This document shows positions 982-59,424 of a DNA stretch of 64,000 bases, one piece after another. The position numbers and the translations under genes were made by a program. The stretch's first letter is position 1; the number at the start of each line of letters is the position of its first letter. The notes under the pieces are model-generated. The model had not been told where the DNA came from and searched no databases. It worked only from the letters and a program-made list of their open reading frames with translations. Origin of the DNA: an uncultured Candidatus Saccharibacteria bacterium (lineage in GTDB: Bacteria > Patescibacteriota > Saccharimonadia > Saccharimonadales > JAUPVS01); NCBI GenBank assembly GCA_964410185.1, contig CAYPFM010000002.1, positions 70,047-134,046 on the forward strand, read 5' to 3'.

Positions 982-2280
982 ATGTTAGACATACAGTACA
1001 TTCGTGATAATCCGGACCTGGTGGAAGAGAAGTCCAAACAAAAAAACGTCAAAGTAGACATTAAGGAACTGCTGAAGCTTGATGCTGAACGCCGTAAACT
1101 GCTCACCGAAGCCGAGGATTTGCGCCAACAACGCAATCAACAAGCCGGTGACACCAAGGGGCAAAAACCGACGCCCGAACAGATTGCCAGCGGCAAATTG
1201 CTTAAAGAAAAACTGACCAAAGTCGAAGCCGACCTTACCAAGGTTGACGACGACTTCTGGGCCAAACTTAAAAAGGTACCTAATGTTGCGCTCGACACGG
1301 TGCCAGTTGGCGCCACCGAGGACGAAAACGTCGTCGTCAAAACCGTCGGCGAACCGACCAAGTTTGATTTCACGCCCAAGAACGATGGGGAACTGGGCTT
1401 GCAAAACGACACCATCGACAAAGAACGCGCCGCCAAAGTTGCCGGCGCCCGCTTTGCCTATCTAAAGGGTGATTTAGTCCGCCTGCAGTTCGCGATTATT
1501 AATTTTGTACTCGACACACTCGGCGATGAGAAGTTGCTGCAGAAATTGATCACCAAAAATAACTTGAACGTCAGTGCCAAACCATTCACCCCAATCTTGC
1601 CACCGGCCATGGTTAAGACCGAACCCTACGAAGCCTCGGCTCGTTTGGATGCCGAAGAGGTCACCTACAAACTGGCTAATGATGAGTTATGGATGAACGC
1701 CAGTGCCGAACACAGTTTGTGTACCATGTATATGAACGAAATCCTGGAAGAAAAAGACCTACCGATTCGTTACCTCGGCTACGCCACCAGCTTCCGCCGC
1801 GAGGCCGGCACCTACGGCAAGGACACCGAAGGCATCTTTCGCATGCACCAGTTCGACAAGCTCGAAATGGAAACTTTTAGCACGCCCGAAACTGGCCTCG
1901 ATGAACACAAACTAATGGTGGCCATTCAGGAATACCTGGTGCAGCAACTCGAGCTGCCGTATCAATTGATTCAAAAATGTACGGCCGACATTGGTAAGCC
2001 GAACGCCCAGGGCATGGACATTAATACCTGGATGCCGGCGCAGGGTCAGTACCGCGAAACCCACACCGCCGACTATATGACCGACTACCAAGCCCGCCGC
2101 CTGAAGACCCGTTATAGACGTGGCGATGGGGAAGTCGAATTCATCCACACGGCCGATGGCACCGCCTTCGCCTTGGGCCGCATCCTCAAGGCCATTACCG
2201 AGAACAACCAGACCAAAGACGGTAACGTCAAAATTCCTAAAGTACTGCAACCTTATATGGGAGGAAAAGAAACGATATGA
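982..2280 (+). CDS. serS: seryl-tRNA synthetase
   Basis: 432 aa. N-terminal coiled-coil arm followed by a class II core (FRREAGTYGKDTEGIFRMHQFDKLE, GRILKAI). Confidence 0.97.
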   Translation: MLDIQYIRDNPDLVEEKSKQKNVKVDIKELLKLDAERRKLLTEAEDLRQQRNQQAGDTKGQKPTPEQIASGKLLKEKLTKVEADLTKVDDDFWAKLKKVPNVALDTVPVGATEDENVVVKTVGEPTKFDFTPKNDGELGLQNDTIDKERAAKVAGARFAYLKGDLVRLQFAIINFVLDTLGDEKLLQKLITKNNLNVSAKPFTPILPPAMVKTEPYEASARLDAEEVTYKLANDELWMNASAEHSLCTMYMNEILEEKDLPIRYLGYATSFRREAGTYGKDTEGIFRMHQFDKLEMETFSTPETGLDEHKLMVAIQEYLVQQLELPYQLIQKCTADIGKPNAQGMDINTWMPAQGQYRETHTADYMTDYQARRLKTRYRRGDGEVEFIHTADGTAFALGRILKAITENNQTKDGNVKIPKVLQPYMGGKETI

Positions 2281-2639
2281 TCGAAAAAATTGAAATCAAC
2301 AGTATTCACGCCCAGGTCGACGATGACCTCAAGAAGTATGTCACGAAAAAAATCGGGCATCTCGATAAGTACCTGTCCAAGCACGCCAAGGAATCGGCCC
2401 ATGCCGAAGTCAAGCTCAAAGAGAGTAAGCAGAAAGATAAAAAGCAGTGCGAATGTGAAGTCATCTTACACCTTCCGAATGACAATCTGGCAGTTAAAGA
2501 GGGTACCATCAATATGTACGCCGCCGTTGATATCGTCGAAGCCAAGCTTAAAAACCAGCTTAAAAAATACAAAGAAGTTCACGAGTCACCACGCTTTCAC
2601 CGCCGGGTAATTCGTCGGCTAAAGCACCGCACCAAATAA
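2277..2639 (+). CDS. hpf: ribosome hibernation promoting factor / RaiA family (short form)
   Basis: 120 aa. Typical pattern: I...H.. V.DDLKKYV.KKI.HLDKY...EVKL....K....CEV.L. ATGA overlap with the serS stop. Confidence 0.85.
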   Translation: MIEKIEINSIHAQVDDDLKKYVTKKIGHLDKYLSKHAKESAHAEVKLKESKQKDKKQCECEVILHLPNDNLAVKEGTINMYAAVDIVEAKLKNQLKKYKEVHESPRFHRRVIRRLKHRTK

Positions 2640-2769
2640 ACCCAACTGGGACATTACCGGCGTGTAGCCACAGTCCCGAGGTAAAAATTACACAAAACCC
2701 CAGGTTTTGCGGGCCTTTACGGTATACTAGAAAGATAATCAATCTGGAGATGAGGGAAATCGATTACTG

Positions 2770-5391
2770 ATGAAAAAAGTCTTAAAACGAGTGCTTGGGG
2801 ATCCACAAGTTAAAACCTTAAAACGCCTAACCAAGCGCGTCAAAATAATTAATGACCTGGCTCCCAAGTATAAGAAGATGACTGATGAGCAGCTGCAAAA
2901 ACAGTCAGCCATTCTCAAGGATCGTCTCAAAAAAGAAACCCTCGACCAGATTCTCCCAGATGCCTTTGCGATTGTTCGCGAAGCTGCCAGCCGCACCATC
3001 GGACAACGTCACTTTGATGTCCAGTTGATCGGTGGCATGGTGCTGCACGAAGGCAGTGTCGCCGAAATGAAGACAGGTGAAGGTAAGACATTGGTAGCAA
3101 CCGCGCCAGTTTACCTGAATGCCTTGACCGAAAAGGGTGTGCACGTGGTGACGGTGAACGATTACCTGGCGCAACTGCACGCCGGTTGGATGGGCCAGGT
3201 CTACGCCTTTTTGGGTCTGACTACCGCCGTTATTATTGCTGACGAGTCATACATTTACGATGCCTCATTCGTGAACAAAAACCACTTCGATAAGCGCATG
3301 CATCCGCTCAAGCCATGTTCACGCCAAGAAGCTTACGCCGCCGATGTTACCTACGGCACCAACAACGAATTTGGTTTTGATTACCTCCGCGACAACATGG
3401 TGCGCGAAGTCGATCAGCTGCGCCAACGACCGCTGCACTACGCCATCGTTGACGAAGTTGACTCTATCTTAATCGACGAAGCCCGCACCCCGCTGATTAT
3501 CTCGGCCCCTTCTACTACCAGCGCCAGCGCCTACCAACAGTTCACCAAGGTGGCTCGCCAACTTAAAAAAGAAGATCACTACGAAGTTGACGAAAAGCGT
3601 AAGTCGGTCATCCTGACCGATGATGGCGTCGACATGGTCGAGAAGGTGTTGGGTATCGATAACTTGTACGGCACCGACAATATCCGCACCATCTATCACC
3701 TCGAACAAGCCCTCCGCGCCCAGGCGCTATTCAAGCGCGACAAAGATTACGTTGTCACCAGTGATGGGGAAGTGGTGATTGTTGATGAGTTCACCGGCCG
3801 CTTGCTCAAGGGTCGTCGTTATAACGAAGGTTTGCACCAAGCCATCGAGGCTAAAGAAAGCGTCACCGTTCAAGAGGAGTCGATGACGCTGGCCACGATT
3901 TCCTTCCAGAACTACTTCCGCCTGTACGAAAAGCTGTCGGGTATGACCGGTACAGCCGAAACCGAGAGCGAAGAATTCTACCAGATTTACGAACTGCACG
4001 TCGTGCAGATTCCGCCAAACCGCAAACTGATTCGCCAAGACCGCCCAGACCGCATCTACAAGACCGAGGAAGGCAAGTTCAAGGCAATTATTAAAGAAGT
4101 TAAGATGTTACACCAAAAGGGTCAGCCAGTGCTGATTGGTACGGCCTCGATTCAAAAGAACGAGCGCCTTGGTGTACTGCTCAAAAAAGCCAGCATCCCA
4201 CACCAGGTTTTGAACGCCAAGAACAACGAGCGAGAAGCGAGCATTATCGCCAAAGCCGGCCAAAAGGGTGCCGTCACCCTGGCCACCAACATCGCCGGTC
4301 GTGGTACCGACATTATGTTAGATGACGAAACTAAAAAGCTTGGCGGTCTCTTCATCCTTGGCTCCGAGCGTCACGAATCCCGACGTATTGATAACCAGCT
4401 CCGCGGTCGTGCCGGTCGCCAGGGCGACCCCGGTATTACTCAGTTCTTTGTCAGTACCGAAGACGACCTGATGCGTGTCTTTGGTGGTGATCGCATTGCC
4501 AGCATGATGACTCGCATGAAAGTGCCCGATGACGTACCAATCGAGAACCGAGTTATTTCACGCAGTCTCGAAGCCGCCCAGAAGAAGGTCGAAGGCCACA
4601 ACTTCGACATTCGTAAAAATGTCGTCCAGTACGACGATGTCATGAACCGCCACCGTAAGGCTACCTACTCAATGCGCAAAGAGATTCTACACCGCGCCGA
4701 CATCGAAAAGCGCATTCGCATCTTTATCGAGGAAGAGGCCAAGGCTCTGGCCGCCTCGCCACTGGCTACCAGCGACGTCTATGAAACACTGATTACCGAA
4801 GCCTTTCCGTTTGACGATACCACCCTGGATCGCTTGTTTGACTCTGACGCCCAGCACTTCGAAAAAGCCCTGAACAAGGAAGCGATCGCTCTGTATGAAT
4901 CCCGCACCGCTGCCTTTGGCGCCACCAATATGCGCAAGGTTGAACGCGATGTCTATCTGCAAGTTCTCGACAATCTTTGGATGCAACACCTCGAGAACAT
5001 GGAGCACCTCCGCGAAGGCATCGGCTGGATTAGTGTTGGTCAGCGCGACCCACTGGTCGAATATCGTAAGCAAGGGCAGGCTATGTTTGAAGAGATGCAG
5101 GAAACCTTGCGCCACGAAGTCGTCCGTACCTTGCTGCACGCCGAACCGGTCGCTAGCGAGCTCGACGAGCCAATCGAAACCGATTTGACCCGCGCCGCTC
5201 GACGCTCCATCGATAATGCCGACAAGGTTATCGAAGTCGACGAGTTCACCGAAAAAGACTTTGCCACCACCAGCGAAGGCGCCCCAGCCATCCCTGTTAG
5301 CAATACCAAAAAAGTCGTCACCGCCGACCAACGTAAGAAAGCACACAAAGCGGAACGCAAGCGCAAGGCCAAAGCGAAGAGGAAGAAGTAG
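2770..5391 (+). CDS. secA: preprotein translocase ATPase SecA
   Basis: 873 aa. MKTGEGKTLVAT Walker A, DEVDSILIDEARTPLIIS, TNIAGRGTDI, Lys-rich C-terminus. Confidence 0.97.
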   Translation: MKKVLKRVLGDPQVKTLKRLTKRVKIINDLAPKYKKMTDEQLQKQSAILKDRLKKETLDQILPDAFAIVREAASRTIGQRHFDVQLIGGMVLHEGSVAEMKTGEGKTLVATAPVYLNALTEKGVHVVTVNDYLAQLHAGWMGQVYAFLGLTTAVIIADESYIYDASFVNKNHFDKRMHPLKPCSRQEAYAADVTYGTNNEFGFDYLRDNMVREVDQLRQRPLHYAIVDEVDSILIDEARTPLIISAPSTTSASAYQQFTKVARQLKKEDHYEVDEKRKSVILTDDGVDMVEKVLGIDNLYGTDNIRTIYHLEQALRAQALFKRDKDYVVTSDGEVVIVDEFTGRLLKGRRYNEGLHQAIEAKESVTVQEESMTLATISFQNYFRLYEKLSGMTGTAETESEEFYQIYELHVVQIPPNRKLIRQDRPDRIYKTEEGKFKAIIKEVKMLHQKGQPVLIGTASIQKNERLGVLLKKASIPHQVLNAKNNEREASIIAKAGQKGAVTLATNIAGRGTDIMLDDETKKLGGLFILGSERHESRRIDNQLRGRAGRQGDPGITQFFVSTEDDLMRVFGGDRIASMMTRMKVPDDVPIENRVISRSLEAAQKKVEGHNFDIRKNVVQYDDVMNRHRKATYSMRKEILHRADIEKRIRIFIEEEAKALAASPLATSDVYETLITEAFPFDDTTLDRLFDSDAQHFEKALNKEAIALYESRTAAFGATNMRKVERDVYLQVLDNLWMQHLENMEHLREGIGWISVGQRDPLVEYRKQGQAMFEEMQETLRHEVVRTLLHAEPVASELDEPIETDLTRAARRSIDNADKVIEVDEFTEKDFATTSEGAPAIPVSNTKKVVTADQRKKAHKAERKRKAKAKRKK

Positions 5392-5453
5392 TAGTGGCCT
5401 TGCTTCACAAATCCTTCCGGGTTAGCGTTCTCGGGCGGCTCAGTAATTTCAGG

Positions 5454-5493
5454 ATGTTGCATCTGCAGGCCGCTAGGCCGAAGCCGCAACATC
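5454..5493 (+). repeat. GC-rich palindromic intergenic repeat, copy a (GGCC variant)
   Basis: GATGTTGC-ATCTGCAGGCCGCTAGGCCGAAGCC-GCAACATC. An 8-bp outer stem encloses the core CATCTGCAG..GAAGCCGCA shared with copies at 19262, 22207 and 22998. Confidence 0.8.
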
Positions 5494-5515
5494 AGGGAAT
5501 TAGTGAGGCAGCCCG

Positions 5516-6802
5516 ATGAAGCACTCAGTTTCCGAAATAAAATCCAAAAACGGCGCCCGTGGCCTCCTCATTCATATTCCTGATGCCACCGTCATGACCT
5601 ACGACTTTAACTTCCGGGCCGGCGAGTATCTGGTAGAACGTGACATTTGGGAGACACCACACCTTATGGAACACTTGTTGCTCGGTGCCAACGAAATGAT
5701 TCCCAAGGCTCGAACATTCCAGGCCGAATTCGAAAAAAACGGCGCCTACTCCAATGCCTCCACTGGCAGCTACGACATTACGTACGAAGCCGAGTGTGCC
5801 GACTTTGAATGGGATCGTATTCTTAGCCTGCTGCTTGTGGCCATAACCAAGCCACTGTTCCTGAAAGAGGAATTTGCGGCCGAGTTCGGCAATGTTCGCG
5901 AAGAACTAACCTCACGTTCCAATAGTCACTTCCGACACTTAAGTCTGGCGCTGCGCGAAGAGTACGGCTTTAAGGTCGTGACCGACCAAGAGCGTCTAAA
6001 GTTAATGGACAACGTGCAGTTGCGCGATCTACAGCATCACTACAAGCGAACGCATACCAGCAGTAACTTGCGTTTTGTGATTGCTGGCAACATCACGCCA
6101 GACCGCAAAGCCGCCATTAAAGCCATGATTAGCTCGATTGAATTACCAGAAGGGCACGGTCGGGAAGAGCTGCCAATCGAGCGACCCCACAAGCTCGAGA
6201 AAGCGCTTTACCTCAAGAACGACACCATCGATAACATCTACTTTTATCTCGATACCTTTAAACAGCGCCAGCTCAGTGATCCAGAAGCCGATGCGCTGGG
6301 GCTCCTCAATACCATGCTCACCGAAACGCTCTATTCCCGAATCCTGGGTACCGCCCGCGAAAAGGGCTTGGTTTACAGTATGAGTTCGGGCTATGCGCAG
6401 TTGCGCGAAAACAGTAATTGGTGGTTTGGCGCCCAGGTTATGCCGGCCAACGCGAACGCCCTTTTTAAGATTATTACCAAGGAACTTAACGCCATTTTTA
6501 GTGGTGACTTGGCTGATGATGATGTGCAGGCGGCCAAACAGTATTCGATTGGGCGTTACCAGCGTGGCGCCCAGACCGTCGGTGGCACGGCCAGTGGCTA
6601 CGCCTACCGTTACTTCTTCGACGATGTTATCGAAGACTACTACTTAGTACCGAATCGCATCAAGGCCATTACCAAGCCACGCATCATTAAAGTTGCCAAC
6701 ACCATGTTCGAAGATGGTGTCTGGGGATTGGGCTGTTTAAGCAACGCCGGCAGTGAGTTTGCCGACAAGTTGCACGACCAAGCCGCTGGCCTGTGGCACT
6801 AG
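5516..6802 (+). CDS. M16 (pitrilysin/insulinase) family zinc peptidase
   Basis: 428 aa. Inverted zinc motif HLMEH (HxxEH) near the N-terminus, two-domain length. Confidence 0.8.
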   Translation: MKHSVSEIKSKNGARGLLIHIPDATVMTYDFNFRAGEYLVERDIWETPHLMEHLLLGANEMIPKARTFQAEFEKNGAYSNASTGSYDITYEAECADFEWDRILSLLLVAITKPLFLKEEFAAEFGNVREELTSRSNSHFRHLSLALREEYGFKVVTDQERLKLMDNVQLRDLQHHYKRTHTSSNLRFVIAGNITPDRKAAIKAMISSIELPEGHGREELPIERPHKLEKALYLKNDTIDNIYFYLDTFKQRQLSDPEADALGLLNTMLTETLYSRILGTAREKGLVYSMSSGYAQLRENSNWWFGAQVMPANANALFKIITKELNAIFSGDLADDDVQAAKQYSIGRYQRGAQTVGGTASGYAYRYFFDDVIEDYYLVPNRIKAITKPRIIKVANTMFEDGVWGLGCLSNAGSEFADKLHDQAAGLWH

Positions 6803-6876
6803 CACCGGGCAGTCTGGTCTTGTGAATCGTGCTTATGGTATGATACAAACAATGTAACTAATAAAAGCGAGAAGAT

Positions 6877-15765: not shown

Positions 15766-16401
15766 ATGAATCAGCTCCAGCCTCAGCTAACTCCATCGGA
15801 ACAACCCCACGTTGTATTGCCTGAGGCTGTGCAAGCCCAAATGCCCCCAGAACAACCCTACGAGCCCACCAAGGGCGATCATCTTGCCCGTCTAACCGGG
15901 GCTACGGCAACCAGTATGCTTGGTGTCGGCCTTGCAGCTGAAGCGCCAACTACTGCCGGTAAGCTCGTGGGTGGGGCTATGGCTCTTTACGGCGCACGAG
16001 ATTATGTCAACGCAAGTGCAGAGATGAGTGGTCGTGAGATGCCAACCGAGTCCCTGATGGGACGCACAAAACAGCGACTATTCGAGATGTCTCAGGTTCT
16101 CGCCGACAAGCATGCAGATAGCCAAGGTCTTATTGGTCGCCTAAAGCGACGCGTTGGTGAAGAAGTGCTTGATCTTCAGGACAAAGAATTTCGGGTTAAC
16201 TTCCAGCGTTTAGTTGGTGGTATGGCCGTCAGTATGTTCGGGATTCAGCTCATGGAAGTGCCCGGCACGGCCGCAAAGGTCGTGAGTGGCGCGTTGATGG
16301 TCGGTGGTATGGCCGAAACAGTGCTGAGCACCCAAAAGGTCGGCGATCGCACCAACCAACTTGCCGCACAGGGCGGACCATCACGACGTAACCAGTCGTA
16401 A
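15766..16401 (+). CDS. hypothetical protein with two Gly/Ala-rich amphipathic/membrane repeats
   Basis: 211 aa. Internal repeat TATSMLGVGLAAEAPTTAGKLVGGAMALYG / GGMAVSMFGIQLMEVPGTAAKVVSGALMVGG. Confidence 0.5.
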   Translation: MNQLQPQLTPSEQPHVVLPEAVQAQMPPEQPYEPTKGDHLARLTGATATSMLGVGLAAEAPTTAGKLVGGAMALYGARDYVNASAEMSGREMPTESLMGRTKQRLFEMSQVLADKHADSQGLIGRLKRRVGEEVLDLQDKEFRVNFQRLVGGMAVSMFGIQLMEVPGTAAKVVSGALMVGGMAETVLSTQKVGDRTNQLAAQGGPSRRNQS

Positions 16402-16426
16402 TACAAGCAAAGCCACGCGACAAAAC

Positions 16427-16449
16427 AGCCACCTTCCGGGGTGGTTTTT
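16427..16449 (+). terminator. rho-independent terminator
   Basis: CCACC-ttccgg-GGTGG followed by TTTTT. Confidence 0.6.
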
Positions 16450-16460
16450 ATGTTATAAGC

Positions 16461-16489
16461 TTGACTTAATAACAAGCTTATGCTAATAT
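16461..16489 (+). promoter_or_regulatory. promoter TTGACT-N17-(TGC)TAATAT for the FHA gene; leader of about 20 nt
   Basis: TTGACTtaataACAAGCTTATGCTAATATG. Second member of the shared-promoter family. Confidence 0.6.
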
Positions 16490-16515
16490 GTAGCTAGAAA
16501 CAAGGCACAACAAAA

Positions 16516-17640
16516 ATGACAAACACCAGCCCAAATCCTAGCCCCGAAATCCAAGAACAGCAGAATCCTGTTATTGAAGCCGATTTGCGACAGCAAAGCA
16601 TGGCCTTCAAACTTGCTGAAATGCCTGCTGGTGAGCATGCAGGTTACAAGGACCTGGAACAAGACCGGGTTACAATCCTGGCTGAACTTGATGCAGGCGC
16701 AGGCAATCGTTTTGTCGTCTGCCAAGACAAGCAAGCCAAAGAAGGGGAAAGCCCATATTACGTCTTGAGCACTTTTCGGTTGTACAAGCCAGAAGGCGAG
16801 AACACCTATGGCGTTGCAACGAGTGTCACGTTGGAGCCGGGCGTTCCACTTCCTCTTGGCCGCAACCAAATGGGTGACGTCACAGTTCGCCATGCCGATG
16901 TGACCATGTCACGGAAGCACGCCACACTTACGCTTGCAGAAGACGGAACCTTGAACATCGCCGACCATAGTACGCACGGTACGCACGTTAAATATGCCAC
17001 TACAGAGAATGCTACTCAACCCGAAAGTACGGAAGCTGAGTCGCCCACAAAAGCCGAAGTTGCAGAAGCAGCAGGCCAACATTTAGATGCTAACCTAGAC
17101 GCCTTACGAGCCAACGAAGCCAACGGCGAACTGGGCACTGAACTTGCTGATAGCGTCAATCGTCTTATTAGCTGGGTTCACGCTGATACCACCGGACGTA
17201 CGCCAGAAGGTGATATCAACTGGGAAGCACGTGTCGAGACGAACCGCGACGGCACATTTGTGCTGAAAGCCAAGGCAATTGGGGGCAAGCACGGCATTGC
17301 GCTGCCTGGCGATAAAACCGCTCACCTAAAAACCTTTGAGATTAATGTTGATGAAAACGGCAACCCACTGGGTGATTCAATTAAATTGAATGTAGAGCTG
17401 TGGGATGTCGAGGGCTTTAGGGCTCGCGAAGTACGGGGAGTCCAGATTGAAGCCAACCAAGGGGCGCTAAAAACGACCGACACCACAACGTATCTTGATC
17501 ACGCTCTAGTTGGTACGGACGACAGGTTAGTTAAACTCGCACAAGCCAGCTGGCGTTCACCAGCTACCGTATATGACGCACAGGTTGCTTTGAGCATATT
17601 GTCGGGCAAAGGTAGCGCCCCAGCAGAAGCAGCTCGCTAA
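16516..17640 (+). CDS. FHA domain-containing protein
   Basis: 374 aa. LPLGRNQMGDVTVRHADVTMSRKHATLTLAEDGTLNIADHSTHGTHV matches the FHA pattern G-R...S-R-x-H...D..S..GT.V. The C-terminal 200 aa are unassigned. Confidence 0.7.
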   Translation: MTNTSPNPSPEIQEQQNPVIEADLRQQSMAFKLAEMPAGEHAGYKDLEQDRVTILAELDAGAGNRFVVCQDKQAKEGESPYYVLSTFRLYKPEGENTYGVATSVTLEPGVPLPLGRNQMGDVTVRHADVTMSRKHATLTLAEDGTLNIADHSTHGTHVKYATTENATQPESTEAESPTKAEVAEAAGQHLDANLDALRANEANGELGTELADSVNRLISWVHADTTGRTPEGDINWEARVETNRDGTFVLKAKAIGGKHGIALPGDKTAHLKTFEINVDENGNPLGDSIKLNVELWDVEGFRAREVRGVQIEANQGALKTTDTTTYLDHALVGTDDRLVKLAQASWRSPATVYDAQVALSILSGKGSAPAEAAR

Positions 17641-17662
17641 CGCACGGTAGCTGACTCAAATA

Positions 17663-17688
17663 AAAAGAGCTCCGCAAGGAGCTCTTTT
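17663..17688. terminator. bidirectional terminator hairpin between convergent genes
   Basis: AAAAGAGCTCC-GCAA-GGAGCTCTTTT. 11-bp stem, GNRA-type loop, A/T runs on both sides. Confidence 0.8.
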
Positions 17689-17704
17689 GCTGTGCAGAGG
17701 AACT

Positions 17705-17977
17705 TTATTCGACCGTGACTTCGGTGCGAATGGTAGTTTTGCCAGTAAAGCGGCGGATTTTGCGCTGCTTGTAGGTGACGATGCCGTCGCGGTCAGCGTG
17801 GATGGTGTAGTTGCGGCTGAGCTTGGTGCCAACGCCAGCGCGCTTGGTAAGACCAACCTGGCGAACAATTACCTGGCCGGTGGTAACTTTTTCGCCACCA
17901 AAGAGCTTAACACCAAGGCGTTGCCCGGGACTGTCATGATTATTTTTACTTGATCCACCAGCTTTAACGTGTGACAT
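17705..17977 (-). CDS. rpmA: 50S ribosomal protein L27
   Basis: 90 aa. MSHVKAGGSSKNNHDSPGQRLGVKLFGGE...IVRQ. Confidence 0.95.
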   Translation of the reverse strand: MSHVKAGGSSKNNHDSPGQRLGVKLFGGEKVTTGQVIVRQVGLTKRAGVGTKLSRNYTIHADRDGIVTYKQRKIRRFTGKTTIRTEVTVE

Positions 17978-17990
17978 AGGTCTCTCTCAG

Positions 17991-19208
17991 TTACTTTCTT
18001 GTTATTACTACAAGTTCACGGCCCACAAATTGATCATCCCTGTGATAGATCAAATCTTCATTACGAACGTGAACGAAACTCATCCGAGTATACCCTAATT
18101 CCTCGAGAGAATCAAGGCAAGGGAGGTGTTTAAAACCGTTTTTGGTTTTCCAGGCGGGGACGGCCAAACAGAGATGAAGGTCTGCTGGGGTTTGCTTAGC
18201 CATGTTTTTGAGGAATTTGCGGTGAATAGTGTCGACGTCGCGCATAACTTGACCGAGAGTTTCGGCGTCTGGTTCGGCCGAGAAGGGGCGCCCTAGATAG
18301 GTCTCGCCAGCTACCATATCAAAGCCTGACCACGAATGGTCGGTGGCATCGCCAACTTCGAGCTTAAACGAACCGGCGACGTTGTGCTTTTCGGTCAACC
18401 AGGTCAGGTTGGCTCGGCTATAGTCGATCATGCGTGGCTCTAGGTCGGTACCGTAAGCAGCAAAGCCGGCCAGCAGGGCTTCCTGCAGCACCACACCGGT
18501 GCCACAGAAGGGATCAAGAATACACGACAAGCGGTTACTGAGGGCTACGTCGGCCTTTTGTTCATCGGGTATGGCAGAGACGTGGTTGCCAGCTAAGTTA
18601 ACGATAATTTGGGCCAACTTAGGTGGCAGCATGCCAACGCGGGCGTCGCGCTTGGGACGGGCTTGGTCGCGAGCGGCGTAGGCGTCGATGTCTTGGACGT
18701 CAACGACTTCGGCGATTAGGGTGCCAGAGCCGTCTTTGACCAGCACGAACTCTAGGCCGGTCGGGCCGGTGAGCTGGTTGTGCAGGGTCTGAGCACTACT
18801 TAATTCCAAACTAGTGTTTGGTACCACGCGGACTGAGCGGCCGGCTTTTTTGACGTACTTTTTAACTTCTAAGCCAGCTCGGTTAACTTCGGCGATTGTC
18901 ATGCGCAGGCCGTAGACGTTGAGGCCGAGGCGGATTTTACCTTCAGGAATATCCTGGAGCAGGGGCGGTACGGTTTTGGTCGCCAAGTGACGGATAATTT
19001 GCGGCCAGGCGGTGGTATCGACGCGGCCAAGGACTTTGGCTAACTTGATGGTGCCACCCAGCCGGGCAAACTGCATGTTGCGCGGCTCAACGTCCAGCAC
19101 AGCTACCTGTCGGTCGATCGGGTGCAGCGAACTAGCACCGTGCAGGCGTTCCAGTTCGGCCAAGCCCAGGGCAGGTTGGCGCCCAAGTATTACTAAACTC
19201 TGATTCAT
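17991..19208 (-). CDS. class I SAM-dependent (RNA m2G/Trm11-UPF0020-like) methyltransferase
   Basis: 405 aa. ILDPFCGTGVVLQEA SAM motif I and AAYGTDLE. The N-terminal half resembles a substrate-binding (THUMP-like) module. Substrate not determinable. Confidence 0.55.
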   Translation of the reverse strand: MNQSLVILGRQPALGLAELERLHGASSLHPIDRQVAVLDVEPRNMQFARLGGTIKLAKVLGRVDTTAWPQIIRHLATKTVPPLLQDIPEGKIRLGLNVYGLRMTIAEVNRAGLEVKKYVKKAGRSVRVVPNTSLELSSAQTLHNQLTGPTGLEFVLVKDGSGTLIAEVVDVQDIDAYAARDQARPKRDARVGMLPPKLAQIIVNLAGNHVSAIPDEQKADVALSNRLSCILDPFCGTGVVLQEALLAGFAAYGTDLEPRMIDYSRANLTWLTEKHNVAGSFKLEVGDATDHSWSGFDMVAGETYLGRPFSAEPDAETLGQVMRDVDTIHRKFLKNMAKQTPADLHLCLAVPAWKTKNGFKHLPCLDSLEELGYTRMSFVHVRNEDLIYHRDDQFVGRELVVITRK

Positions 19209-19217
19209 TGAAGGTCC

Positions 19218-19226
19218 ATTATAGCA
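19218..19226 (-). promoter_or_regulatory. extended -10 box TGCTATAAT; 9 nt before ATG 19208
   Basis: The minus strand reads gTGCTATAATggaccttcaATG. Confidence 0.55.
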
Positions 19227-19254
19227 CTTTCACCTCTGTATTGCTACTTAGGTT

Positions 19255-19296
19255 GAAGCTGCATCTGCAGGCCGTTAGGCCGAAGCCGCAGCTGAA
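19255..19296 (+). repeat. GC-rich palindromic intergenic repeat, copy b (GGCC variant)
   Basis: AGCTG-CATCTGCAGGCCGTTAGGCCGAAGCCGCAGCT. Lies between divergent genes. Confidence 0.8.
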
Positions 19297-19331
19297 GCCT
19301 ATGTATGCAATACAGGAGGGAGGGAATGCGT

Positions 19332-34381: not shown

Positions 34382-34402
34382 CGATTTCCTAAATACCCAA
34401 TC

Positions 34403-34431
34403 AATACACCACATGTGTGGTGTATTTTTTT
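34403..34431 (+). terminator. rho-independent terminator
   Basis: AATACACCACA-TG-TGTGGTGTATT followed by a T run. Confidence 0.75.
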
Positions 34432-34445
34432 GCCCATGACACAAC

Positions 34446-34454
34446 TGTGGATAA
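34446..34454 (-). promoter_or_regulatory. perfect DnaA-box 9-mer (TTATCCACA on the minus strand) upstream of the mraZ promoter
   Basis: The + strand reads cTGTGGATAAc. One of four identical CTGTGGATAA 10-mers in the window. Confidence 0.5.
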
Positions 34455-34496
34455 CTTGGGACACTTTCTCTATAAAAGGGAAGAAAAGGGGTTGTA

Positions 34497-34544
34497 GTGG
34501 GTAGCTGTGGGTAGTATATTCAAACCAGTGGGTAAAAGTGGGTA
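34497..34544 (+). promoter_or_regulatory. putative MraZ operator: four direct GTGGGTA repeats (34497, 34507, 34528, 34538)
   Basis: taGTGGGTAgctGTGGGTAgtatattcaaaccaGTGGGTAaaaGTGGGTAag. Spacings are 10/21/10 nt. A TATATT -10 candidate lies between the two pairs. The site is 76 nt upstream of the mraZ start. Confidence 0.7.
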
Positions 34545-34619
34545 AGACAAAAGAGTCTTAGCCATCCACAAAACAAACACACAATTTATCGGTTCAACGA
34601 GAGGAACCTGGGACAATAA

Positions 34620-41889: not shown

Positions 41890-42777
41890 GTGCGAATACG
41901 GCCCACCAAAACCACTCGTCAACCACAACCGACCGCCGCGCCGCGCGGTGTGATTTCGTATAACACCAATCGTGTGGCTGGGGCCGGGAAGGTTGTAAGT
42001 CCCAAGGCCGAACATTGGTGGCAACAGGGGTGGGTAAGAAACCTACCGACGTTTCTGGCACTGGCCGTAATTACCATCAGTGTCTTGTACTGCCTCGGCC
42101 TCTCCACCAATCCAAAAGTTGTCGTATCTACAACAAGTCCACAGGCAGTCGTTTTGCGTGACAAGGCCGAATATCAGCGTGGCGCTCAGCGTATCCTGGA
42201 AGACTCAGCCCTAAGCCGGACCAAGTTCACCGTTAATACCGGTGGTTTTGAACGGGCCTTCCGCGCCGCCTTCCCGGAAGTCGATGATGTTTCCTTGGCG
42301 CTACCGCTGGTGAGTCGGACGCCCATCGTTACGATTAGCACGGCCCAGCCGCAACTACTCCTGACCGCTCAAGGCAAAGTCTATGTGCTCGACAAACGTG
42401 GAACAGCCATCATGATGGCCAATGACCTCAGCTCTTCTATCCGTCAAACCCTCCCCGTGGTTGATGACCAAAGTGGCTTGTCAGTTTCGGTTGGTAAAAC
42501 CGTCCTGCCGGCCGAGCAGATCCAATATATCACCTCTGTTCTGGCCCAGTTTAAGGCCAAGCAAGTGGCTGTCGAAACTATCACGCTCCCGGCCACTGCC
42601 CAAGAGGTAGACATTAAGCCAGCCGGTAAGCCCTACTATGTAAAATTCAGTACCAGCACCGAGGCGAGGGAAGCGGCTGGCGACTACCTGGCTACCAAGC
42701 AGCGCCTTGAACAGACCAACACGACACCAACACAGTATGTCGATGTGCGGGTGCCAGGCCGCGCATACTACCAGTAG
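41890..42777 (+). CDS. ftsQ: cell-division protein FtsQ/DivIB-like
   Basis: 295 aa, GTG start after GGGGAG. N-terminal TM, then POTRA-like and FtsQ-type beta domains. Last gene of the dcw cluster. Confidence 0.65.
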   Translation: MRIRPTKTTRQPQPTAAPRGVISYNTNRVAGAGKVVSPKAEHWWQQGWVRNLPTFLALAVITISVLYCLGLSTNPKVVVSTTSPQAVVLRDKAEYQRGAQRILEDSALSRTKFTVNTGGFERAFRAAFPEVDDVSLALPLVSRTPIVTISTAQPQLLLTAQGKVYVLDKRGTAIMMANDLSSSIRQTLPVVDDQSGLSVSVGKTVLPAEQIQYITSVLAQFKAKQVAVETITLPATAQEVDIKPAGKPYYVKFSTSTEAREAAGDYLATKQRLEQTNTTPTQYVDVRVPGRAYYQ

Positions 42778-42961
42778 TCGCCCCACCACTACTCTCCTAT
42801 GTTCGCAAAGTGTTCACATGTTTGTTTATGTATGATCCAGCAAAAAAACTATACTATGATGGGGAAACGGGCAAATGTCAAAAAAGGCAGGAAAGCGCCC
42901 AAAGCGGGGAAATACATATAAAAGTATAGAAAGGCACGAAAAGCAAATATTGCAAACCGAC

Positions 42962-42970
42962 TGTGGATAA
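42962..42970 (-). promoter_or_regulatory. perfect DnaA box (TTATCCACA on the minus strand)
   Basis: The + strand reads cTGTGGATAAg. Confidence 0.55.
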
Positions 42971-42993
42971 GTCGGGCCGTTGTACAAAATATC

Positions 42994-43002
42994 TGTGGAT
43001 AA
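42994..43002 (-). promoter_or_regulatory. perfect DnaA box (TTATCCACA on the minus strand)
   Basis: The + strand reads cTGTGGATAAa. 32 bp from the previous box, same orientation. Confidence 0.55.
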
Positions 43003-43184
43003 AGCGACGTAGTGGCAAGCCATTCTAAGGGCTTCTGAGAGTGTGTTTGGAGAGGGTTTGAATAGGAACACCAGTTACAATAGAAAGTAGCGCGCAGAAC
43101 GAAGCGAATAGACAAAAACCTTGGTGACTCGAAAATACTTCCCTTTAGCAGGGGTATCACTAATCCTCTTATGTATATAAATAT

Positions 43185-43212
43185 AAGTCGCAAAATATAC
43201 ATTGTGCGACAT
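43185..43212. other. dif-like Xer recombination site candidate (palindromic arms around a 6-bp TGTATA/TATACA core)
   Basis: The minus strand reads ATGTCGCACAA-TGTATA-TTTTGCGACTT. The inner 16 bp CACAATGTATATTTTG match 14/16 to E. coli dif CATAATGTATATTATG. Confidence 0.4.
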
Positions 43213-43414
43213 GATTGCTATGACTGGTTGTGTGTTCTGCTCCGGCTTCTGCCGGCTGGAATTTCTGCCGCTGCTGTTTTTTATTTTGTGTTATTGCGTT
43301 AATTCTCTACTGCTACTGCCCGGGAGCTTTTTTTGGCACTATGTGAGATTGCCTGTTTCCTATTGGCTGTCACTATCGTGTTCGTAATTTGTACAAAGTT
43401 TTTGTGAACAGACT

Positions 43415-44011
43415 TTAGCTGGCTGTGACAGTAGCCCGACTGGCTTGCTGAAGCTCATGGGCTTCGAGTGCTTGTTGGGTGCTTAATGGGTGATGATGAA
43501 GCTCTACGCGGCCACCGTAGATACCTTCCCCTGCACTATCCATACGAAGTGTTAATGGACGATCGTAGGTGCCTTCGGGTACGTCAGTGTGGGCCGCAGC
43601 GTCGGTCAGTCCGTGGATGCTAAAAACACCTTCATCAAAGCTAATCTCACCGTTCCGAAAAGAAAACGCCTCACTACTAAAGGTGACCGCGACTAACTCC
43701 GTATCAACAGGGGTCCAACCAGGGTTGCCGTCACTGACCTTACCTTGTTCGAACGGGTTCACATACTGTCGAAACGGTCGTGGGGTTGGGTTGCCACGGA
43801 CGCGTAAGGAGCTTTTCCACTCTCTGTCGTCGGCTACTTGGCGGTTGTCGAGGCTGAAGCCATAGAAAGCACCGCTGGCGACATTACCGAGTTGAAGGGT
43901 TGGCTGCGACTCCTGGGCAAGGATTTTGCCAAGGAAACCGGCGAGCTCGGGCGAGGGCACCTTGATTCTTAGTAAGTAATCAACAAAGTGGTGCTTCAAA
44001 TCCATAGCCAA
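43415..44011 (-). CDS. hypothetical protein (shares a short xGEG(I/L)Y segment with 46803..47201)
   Basis: 198 aa. No recognisable domain. LTLRMDSAGEGIYGG resembles IEMRLEDS...SDTGEGLYIADG in the 132-aa protein. Confidence 0.5.
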   Translation of the reverse strand: MAMDLKHHFVDYLLRIKVPSPELAGFLGKILAQESQPTLQLGNVASGAFYGFSLDNRQVADDREWKSSLRVRGNPTPRPFRQYVNPFEQGKVSDGNPGWTPVDTELVAVTFSSEAFSFRNGEISFDEGVFSIHGLTDAAAHTDVPEGTYDRPLTLRMDSAGEGIYGGRVELHHHPLSTQQALEAHELQQASRATVTAS

Positions 44012-44079
44012 TACCCCAATTCTAAATTTAGGATAAGTATAATCCTCTGCTTTTCTTTTGTCTAGGATTGGCAGCTACG

Positions 44080-44658
44080 TTAGTAGATTGGTTCAATGTC
44101 GACCAGATGGAGGGCTGGAACCGATGGCCTGGCTGCGCCCCGAAGTCGGCCAAAGATGTATTGGTCGATGCGGCCGATGTCCCGCAGTGGGGATCGGCTA
44201 TGATGAGGGCGGTTTTTGGTGTAGGCCTTAATTTTGCGACCACAGTCTTGCATCATAACTCGTTCCTCAGGCGAAGCCTTTGCCCAGACGGGCTCAATGC
44301 CATAGCCCTCAACGACGGCTACTCGAGCAAGCGTTCGATAATGAGGCGTGCCTTCTGCTTGGAAGGTGTACCATTCGGTCGGTGCGACACTAATACCAGC
44401 GGCGCGGAGGAGCTGGAACTCGTTGTTCGTCTGTTCTAGCAGGGCCTCAATTCCTTCGAGGCTACACGGCGCCGCAACATGCCTTGGGGACTCTCGGAGG
44501 CGGACTTCTCGAACGATGTGACTAAAGCCATCACTAACTTGGGCTTGCATGGCCTCCCGCCTATCCAGCCAAGACTCTTCTCCTTGTACTTCAAACCAGA
44601 CAATCGGCTGATTGGGCCAGGGGGCGCCAACTTCTGCAACCGTGGCTGGTAAATTCAC
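44080..44658 (-). CDS. hypothetical protein, paralog of the core of 45913..46758 (possible kinase-like fold)
   Basis: 192 aa, GTG start. Shared motifs with the 281-aa protein: G-I-x-V-A-P, D-[IV]-x3-D-Q-Y-I, L-V-D. Confidence 0.5.
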   Translation of the reverse strand: MNLPATVAEVGAPWPNQPIVWFEVQGEESWLDRREAMQAQVSDGFSHIVREVRLRESPRHVAAPCSLEGIEALLEQTNNEFQLLRAAGISVAPTEWYTFQAEGTPHYRTLARVAVVEGYGIEPVWAKASPEERVMMQDCGRKIKAYTKNRPHHSRSPLRDIGRIDQYIFGRLRGAARPSVPALHLVDIEPIY

Positions 44659-44665
44659 GGCTTCT

Positions 44666-45700
44666 CTATTCGGCTAGAGCGTAGGTAGCTTTGGCGACGC
44701 GCTTGAACTGGGCTTTGCCCTGCAGGTTCAAAAGGATGGTCGTTTCTTTAACGTGACGGCTTTTAAGGACGCGCTTGACGATTTCATCGCGGTGGAGGGG
44801 TTCGCCTGCCTTTTGGAGGACTTCGGTGATGATATCGGCCACAGTGCCCTTCTCGTAGCCCCATTCCTTTAAGGCGTAGATGCCGCGGCCAATCAGAACG
44901 AAGCGACTATCTTTGATCAGTTCGTTGTGGATGGCTTGGGTGGTGACATCTTTGCGCTTGAATTCACTGCCCTTGATGGCTTCGGAAATCTCATTAAAGT
45001 GGAGGGGCTTCCCTTTTTCGTAAAGAATGACGTAGATTTTGTCACGAATGTTCTTGGGGTTGACCATTGGCCACTTCACTAGGCCCCAGCGACCGTTAAG
45101 GGTGGCTAATTGCTTAGAGGTGCTAGCCAAGGCGGCAACGTGCTTGCTGTCGGTGTCTTTAACAGAGGTGGCAACCTTGTCGATAGAAGTTGGTTCCCCG
45201 CCCTTTTTGATGGCGTCGATAATCTTGGCAACCTGATCTTTCATCTGTTTTTCGGTGTGGAGCTTGGCCAAACCGACAGCGTGGTAGAAGTTGTCGTTTT
45301 CGTCGATAACAGCCAGGTTTGGGCACAGTAAGGTCAGAAAAGCGACGCGGGCTTGGTCGGTGCGGCTGTTGTCTTTGGTGAGCTTGGCACTGAGGTCGCT
45401 GACGCGGCTGACGCCACCCAGTTGCTCAAGTTCGGTTACGAAACGAGCCTGTAGCTCTTTGATGTGTGGCAGGTCCTGTTCAGCGGTACTCTTGAGGCGT
45501 GTGATAACAGCTTTTTCGAGTTGGCGAACGCGTTCGCGTGTGATGCCAAGGAGTTCCCCAATCTGTTCTAGGGTTTCTTTTCGTTCAAACAGGCCAAAAC
45601 GGCGCGCAATGATTTCGCGTTCTCGTTCACGCTCGATAGTTGCTAGAACATCATTAATAATCTGTTCAATATCGAGTGTGGTCGGGGTTTGGTCTGCCAT
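44666..45700 (-). CDS. sigma-70 region-4-like HTH protein with repeated HARE-HTH (RpoE/delta N-terminal-like) domains
   Basis: EIIARRFGLFERKETLEQIGELLGITRERVRQLEKAVITRLK is region 4. I see no region 2. The C-terminal half has 2-3 HARE-HTH-like units (GKPLHFNEISEAI...GRGIYALKEW; GEPLHRDEIVKRV...ATYALA). ATG 45700 is preceded by AAGGAA; the ORF could also start at TTG 45751. Confidence 0.6.
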   Translation of the reverse strand: MADQTPTTLDIEQIINDVLATIEREREREIIARRFGLFERKETLEQIGELLGITRERVRQLEKAVITRLKSTAEQDLPHIKELQARFVTELEQLGGVSRVSDLSAKLTKDNSRTDQARVAFLTLLCPNLAVIDENDNFYHAVGLAKLHTEKQMKDQVAKIIDAIKKGGEPTSIDKVATSVKDTDSKHVAALASTSKQLATLNGRWGLVKWPMVNPKNIRDKIYVILYEKGKPLHFNEISEAIKGSEFKRKDVTTQAIHNELIKDSRFVLIGRGIYALKEWGYEKGTVADIITEVLQKAGEPLHRDEIVKRVLKSRHVKETTILLNLQGKAQFKRVAKATYALAE

Positions 45701-45759
45701 ATCGTATTCCTTGTCTGTTAAGTCATCGGGCGCCCACTCTGCCGTCAACAATTACTAAC

Positions 45760-50250: not shown

Positions 50251-50529
50251 GCTCGGCTCCTTTCAGATTGGTGCCTCGCGGGTTTCTGTATATAGCTTAG
50301 CAACAGCTACGATTTTGGGAGCGCAAATTAACCGGTTTTTAATGATTCAGATTAATAAAGTTAATAATCCCACACCGTAGCATTCTTAAAAAACTTAATC
50401 TGAATTCTTACCTTTTGGTTAAATGGTGCTCCAAAATCCATAGCACACCAAAAGGCACTGTAAGAGCCGGCCAACAGAGGTCGAAAACATAATTTAAAGA
50501 AACTAAGTTGCACAAAAAGCAAAATAGTA

Positions 50530-50557
50530 TTGACAAACAACAGAAAGTTGCTAAAAT
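50530..50557 (+). promoter_or_regulatory. orphan promoter TTGACA-N16-(TGC)TAAAAT with no long ORF downstream
   Basis: -35 box at 50530-50535, -10 box at 50552-50557, extended TG at 50549-50550. Confidence 0.55.
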
Positions 50558-50824
50558 AGCAATCCGTAAGCGTAATACTTTACGTTTCGCACCTTTTACC
50601 CCCAATTCTAACAAATTGTTAGATTGTTCTCAGAGCGGCAGCCTAAGTTGTTACCCTCCACTTATCGCAGCACTCGGTGTCAAAACCGAACGCTCTAGAA
50701 CAAACTAATCCCTTTAACAGATCCCGGAACCAGGCTTGCCTGGTCGAGGTCCCCAATTCAAAGTGAGTATTCAAGTATTCTGCGACCTTCGGGTCCAGAG
50801 GCGCACATCTTTAAGGAGTTTTGG

Positions 50825-50902
50825 ATGCTGACGCTTCACTGGGGTGGGTTGAAGGGTGTAATTTGGGGAGAACCTGACATTCTTGGTTCTCCTTTGAAAT
50901 AG
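50825..50902 (+). CDS. candidate 25-aa sORF inside the orphan transcript
   Basis: AAGGAG at 50813-50818, a 6-nt spacer, ATG at 50825. MLTLHWGGLKGVIWGEPDILGSPLK*. The stop abuts the terminator. Confidence 0.25.
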   Translation: MLTLHWGGLKGVIWGEPDILGSPLK

Positions 50903-50941
50903 GCCTCCAGCGGTGCCCACCCCCTCTGGAGGTCTTTTTTT
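50901..50941 (+). terminator. rho-independent terminator
   Basis: AGGCCTCCAG-N15-CTGGAGGTCT (10 bp including one G-U pair) followed by TTTTTTT. Confidence 0.8.
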
Positions 50942-59326: not shown

Positions 59327-59349
59327 TAACCATTAGTGTAATCCGTCTC

Positions 59350-59358
59350 TGTGGATAA
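59350..59358 (-). promoter_or_regulatory. perfect DnaA-box 9-mer (TTATCCACA on the minus strand) upstream of 59425
   Basis: The + strand reads cTGTGGATAAg. Fourth copy of the CTGTGGATAA 10-mer. Confidence 0.45.
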
Positions 59359-59424
59359 GCAAACTGCTTGTGTTATTGACAACGAGTGGTTTTCAGCTGA
59401 TAAGCCGCTTAGATAAGGAAAAAT

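Follow-up and report, generated by a model that had tools for sequence, protein, structure and literature searches.

What is the 637-bp non-coding island that separates two convergent genes in this 64,000-nucleotide stretch of contig CAYPFM010000002.1 (assembly GCA_964410185.1; hereafter the window), at the very point where the coding strand changes? The island (window 42778-43414, without strand) is bounded by the 3' ends of an ftsQ-like open reading frame (ORF), which stops at 42777 on the plus strand, and of a lineage-specific orphan ORF, which stops at 43415 on the minus strand. An initial annotation of this DNA had described a long, AT-rich convergent gap coinciding with a switch of coding strand, and both descriptions were upheld. 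The GC content is 42.1% in the island vs 52.0% in the window, and the island is the largest convergent gap of the window and one of its three largest true gaps. Among ORFs of at least 100 aa, 40 on the plus and two on the minus strand lie to its left, and 15 of the 16 to its right, up to 59.3 kb, are on the minus strand. The annotation had also favoured an element of replication or chromosome organisation over empty spacer, with which our results agree: the island has a dif-like core that is conserved, lies in mid-chromosome and is used by phages. We consider that this core is, with a probability of about 0.8, a dif-type site for Xer recombination, situated where one replication arm joins the other. 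This reading is based on the class-wide invariance of the core, its mid-chromosome position, the convergent gene polarity around it and the integration of phages into it.

A 28-bp dif-like core and its place in the chromosome

The core occupies 28 bp of the plus strand (43185-43212) in an 11-6-11 arrangement, AAGTCGCAAAA-TATACA-TTGTGCGACAT, with the left arm AAGTCGCAAAA at 43185-43195, the centre TATACA at 43196-43201 and the right arm TTGTGCGACAT at 43202-43212. The dif-like 9-6-9 palindrome recognized by the initial annotation, GTCGCAAAA-TATACA-TTGTGCGAC, is located at 43187-43210; it proved to be the core of the island and to behave as a dif/Xer site. At up to three mismatches it is the only such palindrome in the window, and shuffled sequences gave none. 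The central hexamer is identical to that of Escherichia coli dif (TGTATA on the other strand). Over the full 28 positions, the core shares 18 with E. coli dif, 17 with that of Bacillus subtilis and 15 with that of Frankia, where six window positions reach 18/28 by chance. Moreover, it forms five of the six pairs at positions 7-12/17-22, which passes the requirement of Kono et al. that a dif site should have more than four pairs at these positions (PMC3025954).

To examine conservation, relatives were collected as contigs encoding homologues of the ftsQ-like protein (40-87% identity), and ten of the corresponding gaps were aligned. All ten relatives keep a gap of 510-780 bp after the ftsQ-like gene, followed by convergent genes, and the alignment displays invariant blocks amid variable, indel-rich DNA, the palindrome being the strongest block. 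The 22-mer TCGCAAAATATACATTGTNCGA was then searched in one genome per species, which yielded at least 120 exact matches; among the matches listed, the carriers are nearly all labelled Saccharibacteria, and the 22-mer is found once per stretch and once per assembly. Neither a second copy of the core at up to seven mismatches nor a second, degenerate site near the core was found in the genome loci examined. The analyses below cover 127 genomes for the core, 114 for the alignment, 110 for the blocks and boxes, and 35 sequences for pair changes.

The conserved unit is exactly 28 nt long and reads R-A-GTCGCAAAA-TATACA-TTGTRCGAC-R-T. Its 24-nt palindrome has a single variable base (G in 101 genomes, A in 26), two extra bases are constrained on each side (R-A on the left, R-T on the right), and the sequence is random from the third base outwards. 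In the flanks of the core, Watson-Crick complementarity was not above chance and no covariation was seen. The two arms are nearly identical, differing at 2 of 11 positions, and this asymmetry is invariant. Beyond the core, several island blocks show 80-100% column identity in the 114-species alignment, and the stretches at about 43005-43135 and 43245-43375 are weakly conserved and rich in indels; the ftsQ-like protein itself drops to 36-40% identity. The order and spacing of the blocks are preserved across genomes, with all four island blocks present together in 62 of 110 genomes and the core standing alone in nine divergent ones. Alignment downstream of ftsQ had been suggested as a check along with the initial annotation, and both the gap and its blocks are conserved, in the ten relatives as well as in the 114 genomes. 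At one locus (L111), just to the right of the core, the right arm contains a tandem duplication of ATTGTGCGAC (…TATACATTGTGCGACATTGTGCGACATTG…), which may be the footprint of aberrant recombination.

Gene polarity around the core is equally regular. When the loci were oriented by the 22-mer, plus-strand genes always lay to the left and minus-strand genes to the right, the plus:minus ratio of ORFs of at least 150 aa being 326:5 on the left and 9:289 on the right; about 98% of these genes converge on the site. Non-coding DNA extends for about 400 nt to the left and 200 nt to the right of the core (approximately 120 genomes).

In four complete or near-complete chromosomes, the site is positioned at 0.487, 0.476, 0.466 and 0.504 of the record. 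That four of five positions fall within 5% of the circle is not expected from arbitrary record starts. Circular genomes of the MFD study, the source of two of the four chromosomes, were run through dnaapler (PMC12313526), and Saccharibacteria have been reported to replicate bidirectionally, in the normal way, from an origin between dnaN and dnaA (PMC6031116). The site probably lies opposite dnaA and the origin.

GC skew had been put forward as a further check. It does change sign near 43 kb, from negative to positive, but it tracks the coding strand gene by gene; the flip is thus not independent evidence, and the check is not informative here. A replication-linked skew switch could not be told apart from coding-strand and gene-specific effects in the 64-kb window or in the 8-kb loci. 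Elsewhere in the window, plus-strand genes have a third-position GC skew of about -0.24 over 1-16 kb and of about -0.06 over 19-43 kb; the shift, at about 16000-19300, is close to three ORFs that matched no family and one of which is on the minus strand. This shift could be a difference in codon usage.

Prophages and phage copies of the site

The use of the site by mobile elements is, in our opinion, the decisive evidence for a dif site. Two viral contigs (L137 and L148) contain the exact 22-mer, and both carry an inovirus-like prophage sitting exactly at the site. The order in L137 is the end of the ftsQ-like gene, the left island blocks, the full site and then about 5.5 kb of foreign DNA (prophage at 1353-6833, attL at 1325-1352, attR at 6834-6861). 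This insert encodes a rolling-circle Rep (Pfam 1.9e-11, PHROG 9.6e-15), a Zot-like protein and small hydrophobic ORFs; a rolling-circle Rep together with a Zot-like protein is a hallmark of filamentous phages. At its far end there is a hybrid site, CAATATCGCAA-TATACA-TTGTGCGACAT, followed by the normal host right flank with block F, the conserved block at the right island edge (TGTTCGTAATTTGTACA, window 43379-43395, plus strand). Since a full and a hybrid site are both present, the element recombined within the site, to which it contributed a degenerate left arm, and an intact site remained. A right-hand junction of this type is also seen in L148 (about 6630-6660 of the oriented sequence, reverse strand), where it belongs to another Zot-encoding, inovirus-like prophage of about 5.5 kb. 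Inoviruses had been predicted earlier in the Candidate Phyla Radiation (PMC6813254).

Centre and right arm together occur in 24 viral contigs, vs about two expected by a rough estimate. The 22 further contigs have free-standing copies, whose left arm is either degenerate or an inverted right arm (ATGTCGCACAA); the perfect palindrome ATGTCGCACAA-TATACA-TTGTGCGACAT is a frequent form. Degenerate XerD arms were also described in phage sites by Kono et al. (PMC3025954). Contigs with a free-standing site include L138/L158, L146/L160, L151, L143, L139, L149 and L159, and several site-bearing contigs are, where screened, tailed phages with terminase or head-tail genes. A separate contig family (L141 and L152-L156) shares the left arm AGATGTCCTAA, and the member screened (L155) encodes a replication initiator and a RecE-like exonuclease. 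Altogether, at least three unrelated phage types have the same centre and arm. Near the free phage sites, neither DnaA boxes nor block F nor its counterpart at the left island edge, block A (TGTTCGCAAAGTGTTCA, window 42800-42816, plus strand), could be found, save for the host flank in L148. The phages carry the site alone, and therefore the 28-mer works as a unit without the other island blocks, which speaks against its being no more than an RNA hairpin or an operator. From the site that they share with these hosts, the viral contigs are candidate Saccharibacteria phages. In L138, repeated GGCGTTTAAT-N-TGTCAA units were observed (59-72 and 1024-1320), with near-identical repeats of about 70 nt, one copy adjoining a TGTGGATAG box; this may be a replication or packaging region of the phage.

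By analogy with XerCD/dif, Xer-type tyrosine recombinases would bind the two inverted 11-bp arms, strands would be exchanged across the 6-bp centre TATACA, and a chromosome dimer would be resolved into two monomers at division. We infer from this analogy that Xer proteins would bind and cut the site and resolve dimers there, and that the prophages would likewise be integrated by Xer.

Several observations weigh against a dif site. The likeness to known dif sequences is only moderate and would prove little alone, and the inner arm bases are AAAA/TTGT instead of the usual ATAA/TTAT. No Xer or FtsK gene was found in the 64-kb window, to which the search was confined, and a motif search of all loci detected no recombinase gene up to 8 kb away from the site; a xerS/xerH-type module with an adjoining recombinase gene was discarded on this ground. 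The dif function requires only 28 bp, and a dif site leaves the rest of the island unaccounted for. In addition, the site lies at 0.758 of the record in the fifth complete genome, and its placement opposite the origin depends on record starts at dnaA, which are themselves inferred. Skew at third codon positions has no clear sign switch at the island, coding-strand and gene-specific effects being dominant, and genes on the minority strand have positive skew residuals on both sides of the site, which is a mild objection.

Other readings of the island

Among the other readings, a small RNA survives best, though we regard it as unlikely. The core and block D would form a minus-strand transcript of about 90 nt, composed of a 5' palindrome hairpin, a linker and a terminator hairpin, and sequence conservation would reflect the RNA and not a DNA site. 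Block D (43137-43169, minus strand) is a hairpin, ACTTCCCT-loop-AGGGGTAT, followed by TAATCCTCT; its consensus, ACTCCCCT-loop-RGGGGTAT, lies 60 to 35 nt left of the core, with a loop of varying length. Changes at the only variable base of the palindrome, like the common ones in block D, keep the pairs as G-U on the minus strand only, and the block D hairpin, which on that strand runs into a short U-rich tail, is stabler as minus-strand RNA in 74 genomes vs 25 (p=3e-6). However, Rfam returned nothing at the gathering score for the island and only chance-level matches at E-values up to 10, and none of the 12 predicted pairs had a compensatory change in the 35 sequences, the only change being C-G to U-G on the minus strand. 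Both the loop and the stem of the palindrome are invariant, and the phage copies of the site stand by themselves, many of them having a left arm unable to pair with the right one.

Transcription signals were examined too. At block B (42842-42884), the minus-strand hexamers TTGACA and TATAGT have a spacing of 22 nt, both in the window and in the relatives inspected, which is not a canonical promoter, and no position was enriched for a canonical promoter on either strand of the 110 genomes, with the reservation that the consensus may differ from that of this phylum. A sigma-70 promoter predicted on the minus strand of the window does not generalise to relatives, and block D was rejected as a general intrinsic terminator, as only about 18 of 110 genomes passed a strict test. 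Support for the unannotated RNA that the initial annotation had offered as an option is weak, with neither an Rfam match nor compensatory pairs found. The hairpin bias, the U-rich tail and the C/U variation in the core are hints of minus-strand transcription through the site, which could be compatible with a dif function.

Coding potential was also rejected for the ORFs tested. The 117-aa minus-strand ORF of the island is reduced in relatives to a median of 12 aa, the ORF starting with ATGTCAA varies from 4 to 60 aa across genomes, and the 21-aa ORF, rightly doubted from the beginning like the 61-aa TTG ORF at 43202-43387, has no ATG and suffers a 1-nt indel in the closest relative (L001, 87% identity). 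No family match was obtained for the three island ORFs scanned.

It is rather improbable that the palindrome serves a dedicated integrase of a phage or other element, and not the host Xer system, as attachment site, and is conserved for some other reason of the host. The prophage junctions at the site would fit such an integrase, and the tailed-phage contigs were screened only in part. However, none of the seven ORFs of the 5.5-kb L137 prophage matched an integrase family, the same centre and arm are shared by the unrelated phage types described above, and the host site has an 11-6-11 structure and lies in mid-chromosome at the polarity switch.

Still less probable is a role of the island as replication origin, or as a secondary replication element dependent on DnaA, which DnaA boxes in AT-rich DNA might suggest. 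Both perfect DnaA boxes noticed at the outset (TTATCCACA, minus strand) are present, 32 bp apart: box 1 at 42962-42970, in conserved block C (CTGTGGAWAAGTCA), and box 2 at 42994-43002, which is kept in eight of ten close relatives and has low column identity in the 114-genome alignment. The window contains four perfect boxes vs about 0.5 expected; the others are at 59350-59358, in a 98-bp divergent gap (59327-59424), and at 34446-34454, in a 238-bp gap (34382-34619) upstream of the ORF that opens the cell-division cluster. A DnaA-type box (TGTGGAWAA / TGTGNAWAA) is found at -180 to -250 from the core in 99 of 110 genomes; its orientation never changes, and its density is 40 times that of the flanks. 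The AT-rich island and the change of skew from negative to positive would also fit an origin.

Against an origin, only a single box is widely conserved: exactly one is found in 81 of the 110 genomes, at least two in 18 and none in 11. Some 98% of genes converge on the island, whereas origins have diverging genes and usually lie next to dnaA/dnaN. No pattern of a DnaA-trio or unwinding element was seen on reading the island sequence. The AT-rich palindrome CTTAT-N10-ATAAG of the initial annotation is present at 43168-43187; it is not conserved and belongs to a poorly conserved stretch in the 114 genomes. Moreover, the 64-kb window has no dnaA signature and the reported origin is at dnaN-dnaA (PMC6031116), the site is at 47-50% of four chromosomes, and the skew tracks the coding strand. 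An origin of replication was ruled out by the number of boxes, gene polarity, position and the absence of dnaA from the window. Finally, a functionless decaying spacer or gene remnant (e.g., of a lost ftsA/ftsZ), to which the two poorly conserved, indel-rich stretches might point, can practically be dismissed, as it is contradicted by blocks that stay 80-100% identical over 114 species, vs 36-40% for the FtsQ-like protein, and keep their order and spacing.

Conserved surroundings and comparison with known systems

Blocks A and F share the edge motif TGTTCG-YAWWWT-GTTCA, which is found at both edges of the island, about 20 nt from the neighbouring stop codons and in direct orientation. Each contains a GTTC-N7-GTTC direct repeat, and the two blocks are the sole exact copies of the motif in the window. 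Block A (80-99% column identity in 114 genomes) is present in 87 of 110 genomes, about 367 nt left of the core, and block F in 74, at a median of 194 nt to its right, vs a background of about 1%; block F is kept to the right of the prophages in both L137 and L148. Many copies of the edge motif read GTTCGCAAAAT, which has one extra T compared with GTCGCAAAAT in the left arm of the core. In Alphaproteobacteria, LexA sites have the format GTTC-N7-GTTC (PMC8565304). Reading blocks A and F as SOS boxes was nevertheless rejected, given that there are only two exact copies in the window and that the other GTTC-N7-GTWC matches are inside predicted genes; an SOS-type motif was also absent just beyond the start of the UmuC-like ORF.

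Further conserved blocks lie between the edges. Block B (42842-42884, plus strand) consists of an A-tract, CTATAC and the first AAAWGTCAA repeat (AAATGTCAAAAA, 42873-42884); two copies of this repeat are located left of the core, one of them fused to the DnaA-type box. A near-palindrome, GCAAATATTGC (42943-42953, no strand; GCAAATATTTGC in relatives), lies close to DnaA box 1, on its left. To the right of the core, the moderately conserved block GTTCTGCTCC (43234-43243, plus strand; GCTCTGCT in many genomes) is retained in the host flank to the right of both prophages. We take the remaining approximately 600 bp, which most of the class keeps, to be protein-binding or transcript-end elements tied to the junction. 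Tentatively, this setting may be an accessory nucleoprotein architecture that controls Xer recombination, or one that ties DnaA binding or replication control to the terminus; to our knowledge, neither has been reported for a chromosomal dif. Between the ftsQ-like stop codon and block A, the window (42779-42797) and its relatives have a C-rich, G-poor tract, CCCCACCACTACTCTCC (consensus CCCC…CTCTCC), which might be a Rho-loading or transcript-end signal.

The left neighbour of the island, the ftsQ-like gene (41890-42777, plus strand), is the last gene of a mraW-ftsI-mraY-ftsW-murG cluster and directly follows murG, which is the usual place of ftsQ. Its product has no match in Pfam, NCBIfam or PDB and has 31 homologues, of which those with names are from Saccharibacteria or Patescibacteria; judging from these named homologues, the host of the window is a member of the Saccharibacteria (Patescibacteria). 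The right neighbour is an orphan ORF of 198 aa (43415-44011, minus strand), for which a protein database search returned only itself, and relatives have other genes at the same place. In the region 43415-44658 and its equivalents in L001-L016, one to three orphan genes are found to the right of the island and differ between relatives, so that this region looks like a hotspot of gene turnover. Beyond it, 44666-45751 encodes a protein of the 344-361 aa type with a sigma-70 region 4 and a HARE-HTH domain, the latter as in the RNA polymerase delta subunit. All relatives examined (L004, L007, L010, L012, L013 and L015) keep a homologue at a distance of one to three genes from the right edge of the island, in some of them as the first gene on that side, and topA also lies farther to the right. 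The window also has a second long gap, between dprA and pth on the minus strand (50251-50939; 689 bp, 44% GC), without an Rfam match at E-values up to 1 or a convincing ORF; relatives keep a gap of 770-800 bp between topA and pth (L012, 11687-12455; L015, 5986-6784).

Although dif-type elements themselves are well known, the site appears to be undescribed for this phylum, as the literature searched that mentions Saccharibacteria or Patescibacteria contained no description of a dif site. Saccharibacteria (TM7), which are ultra-small episymbionts, are difficult both to cultivate and to engineer. The site would mark the probable replication terminus in fragmented metagenome-assembled genomes, which is useful for assembly checks and for estimating growth from coverage. 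Copies of the site link uncultured phages, both inovirus-like and tailed, to Saccharibacteria hosts, and the site would offer a natural landing pad for the integration of DNA into Saccharibacteria. Its conserved setting provides a testable lead on the way in which the end of replication is organised in a reduced genome.

Compared with XerCD/dif of E. coli and its CodV-RipX counterpart in B. subtilis, the site has the same 28-bp length, inverted 11-bp arms and 6-bp centre, is present in one copy wherever checked, lies about half-way round the chromosome where gene polarities converge, and is strongly conserved in a large clade. What is unusual is that it has AAAA/TTGT inner bases and near-identical arms, and that it is syntenic, always just after ftsQ and inside a conserved island of about 600 bp. 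The near-symmetric arms would fit one recombinase, as in the single-recombinase systems XerS/difSL, XerH/difH and archaeal XerA/dif, whereas their invariant asymmetry in 127 genomes would fit two recombinases also; unlike for XerS and XerH, whose genes are next to their sites, there is no recombinase gene within 8 kb here. The plasmid sites cer and psi likewise place a Xer core amid conserved extra DNA, and blocks A and F resemble the left arm; however, the accessory DNA of cer/psi is about 180 bp on one side of a plasmid site, whereas here it lies on both sides of a chromosomal one and an accessory role is conjectural. With oriC and DnaA-box clusters (datA, DARS and the DBCs of B. subtilis), the island has in common a consensus box in AT-rich non-coding DNA at a fixed position and orientation, but it differs in its usually single box, convergent genes and mid-chromosome location.

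The prophages resemble the integrative mobile elements exploiting Xer (IMEX) known from Vibrio (CTXphi, VGJphi and TLCphi) and from filamentous phages of Xanthomonas and Yersinia: elements with Rep and Zot-like proteins sit at the site, flanked by an intact copy of it and, at the opposite end, by a hybrid in which one arm is degenerate, and the free phage sites keep the centre and one arm while the other arm degenerates. Unlike in IMEX, the hosts are Saccharibacteria, tailed phages with terminases have the site too, and in many phage sites the two arms are the right arm and its perfect inverted copy.

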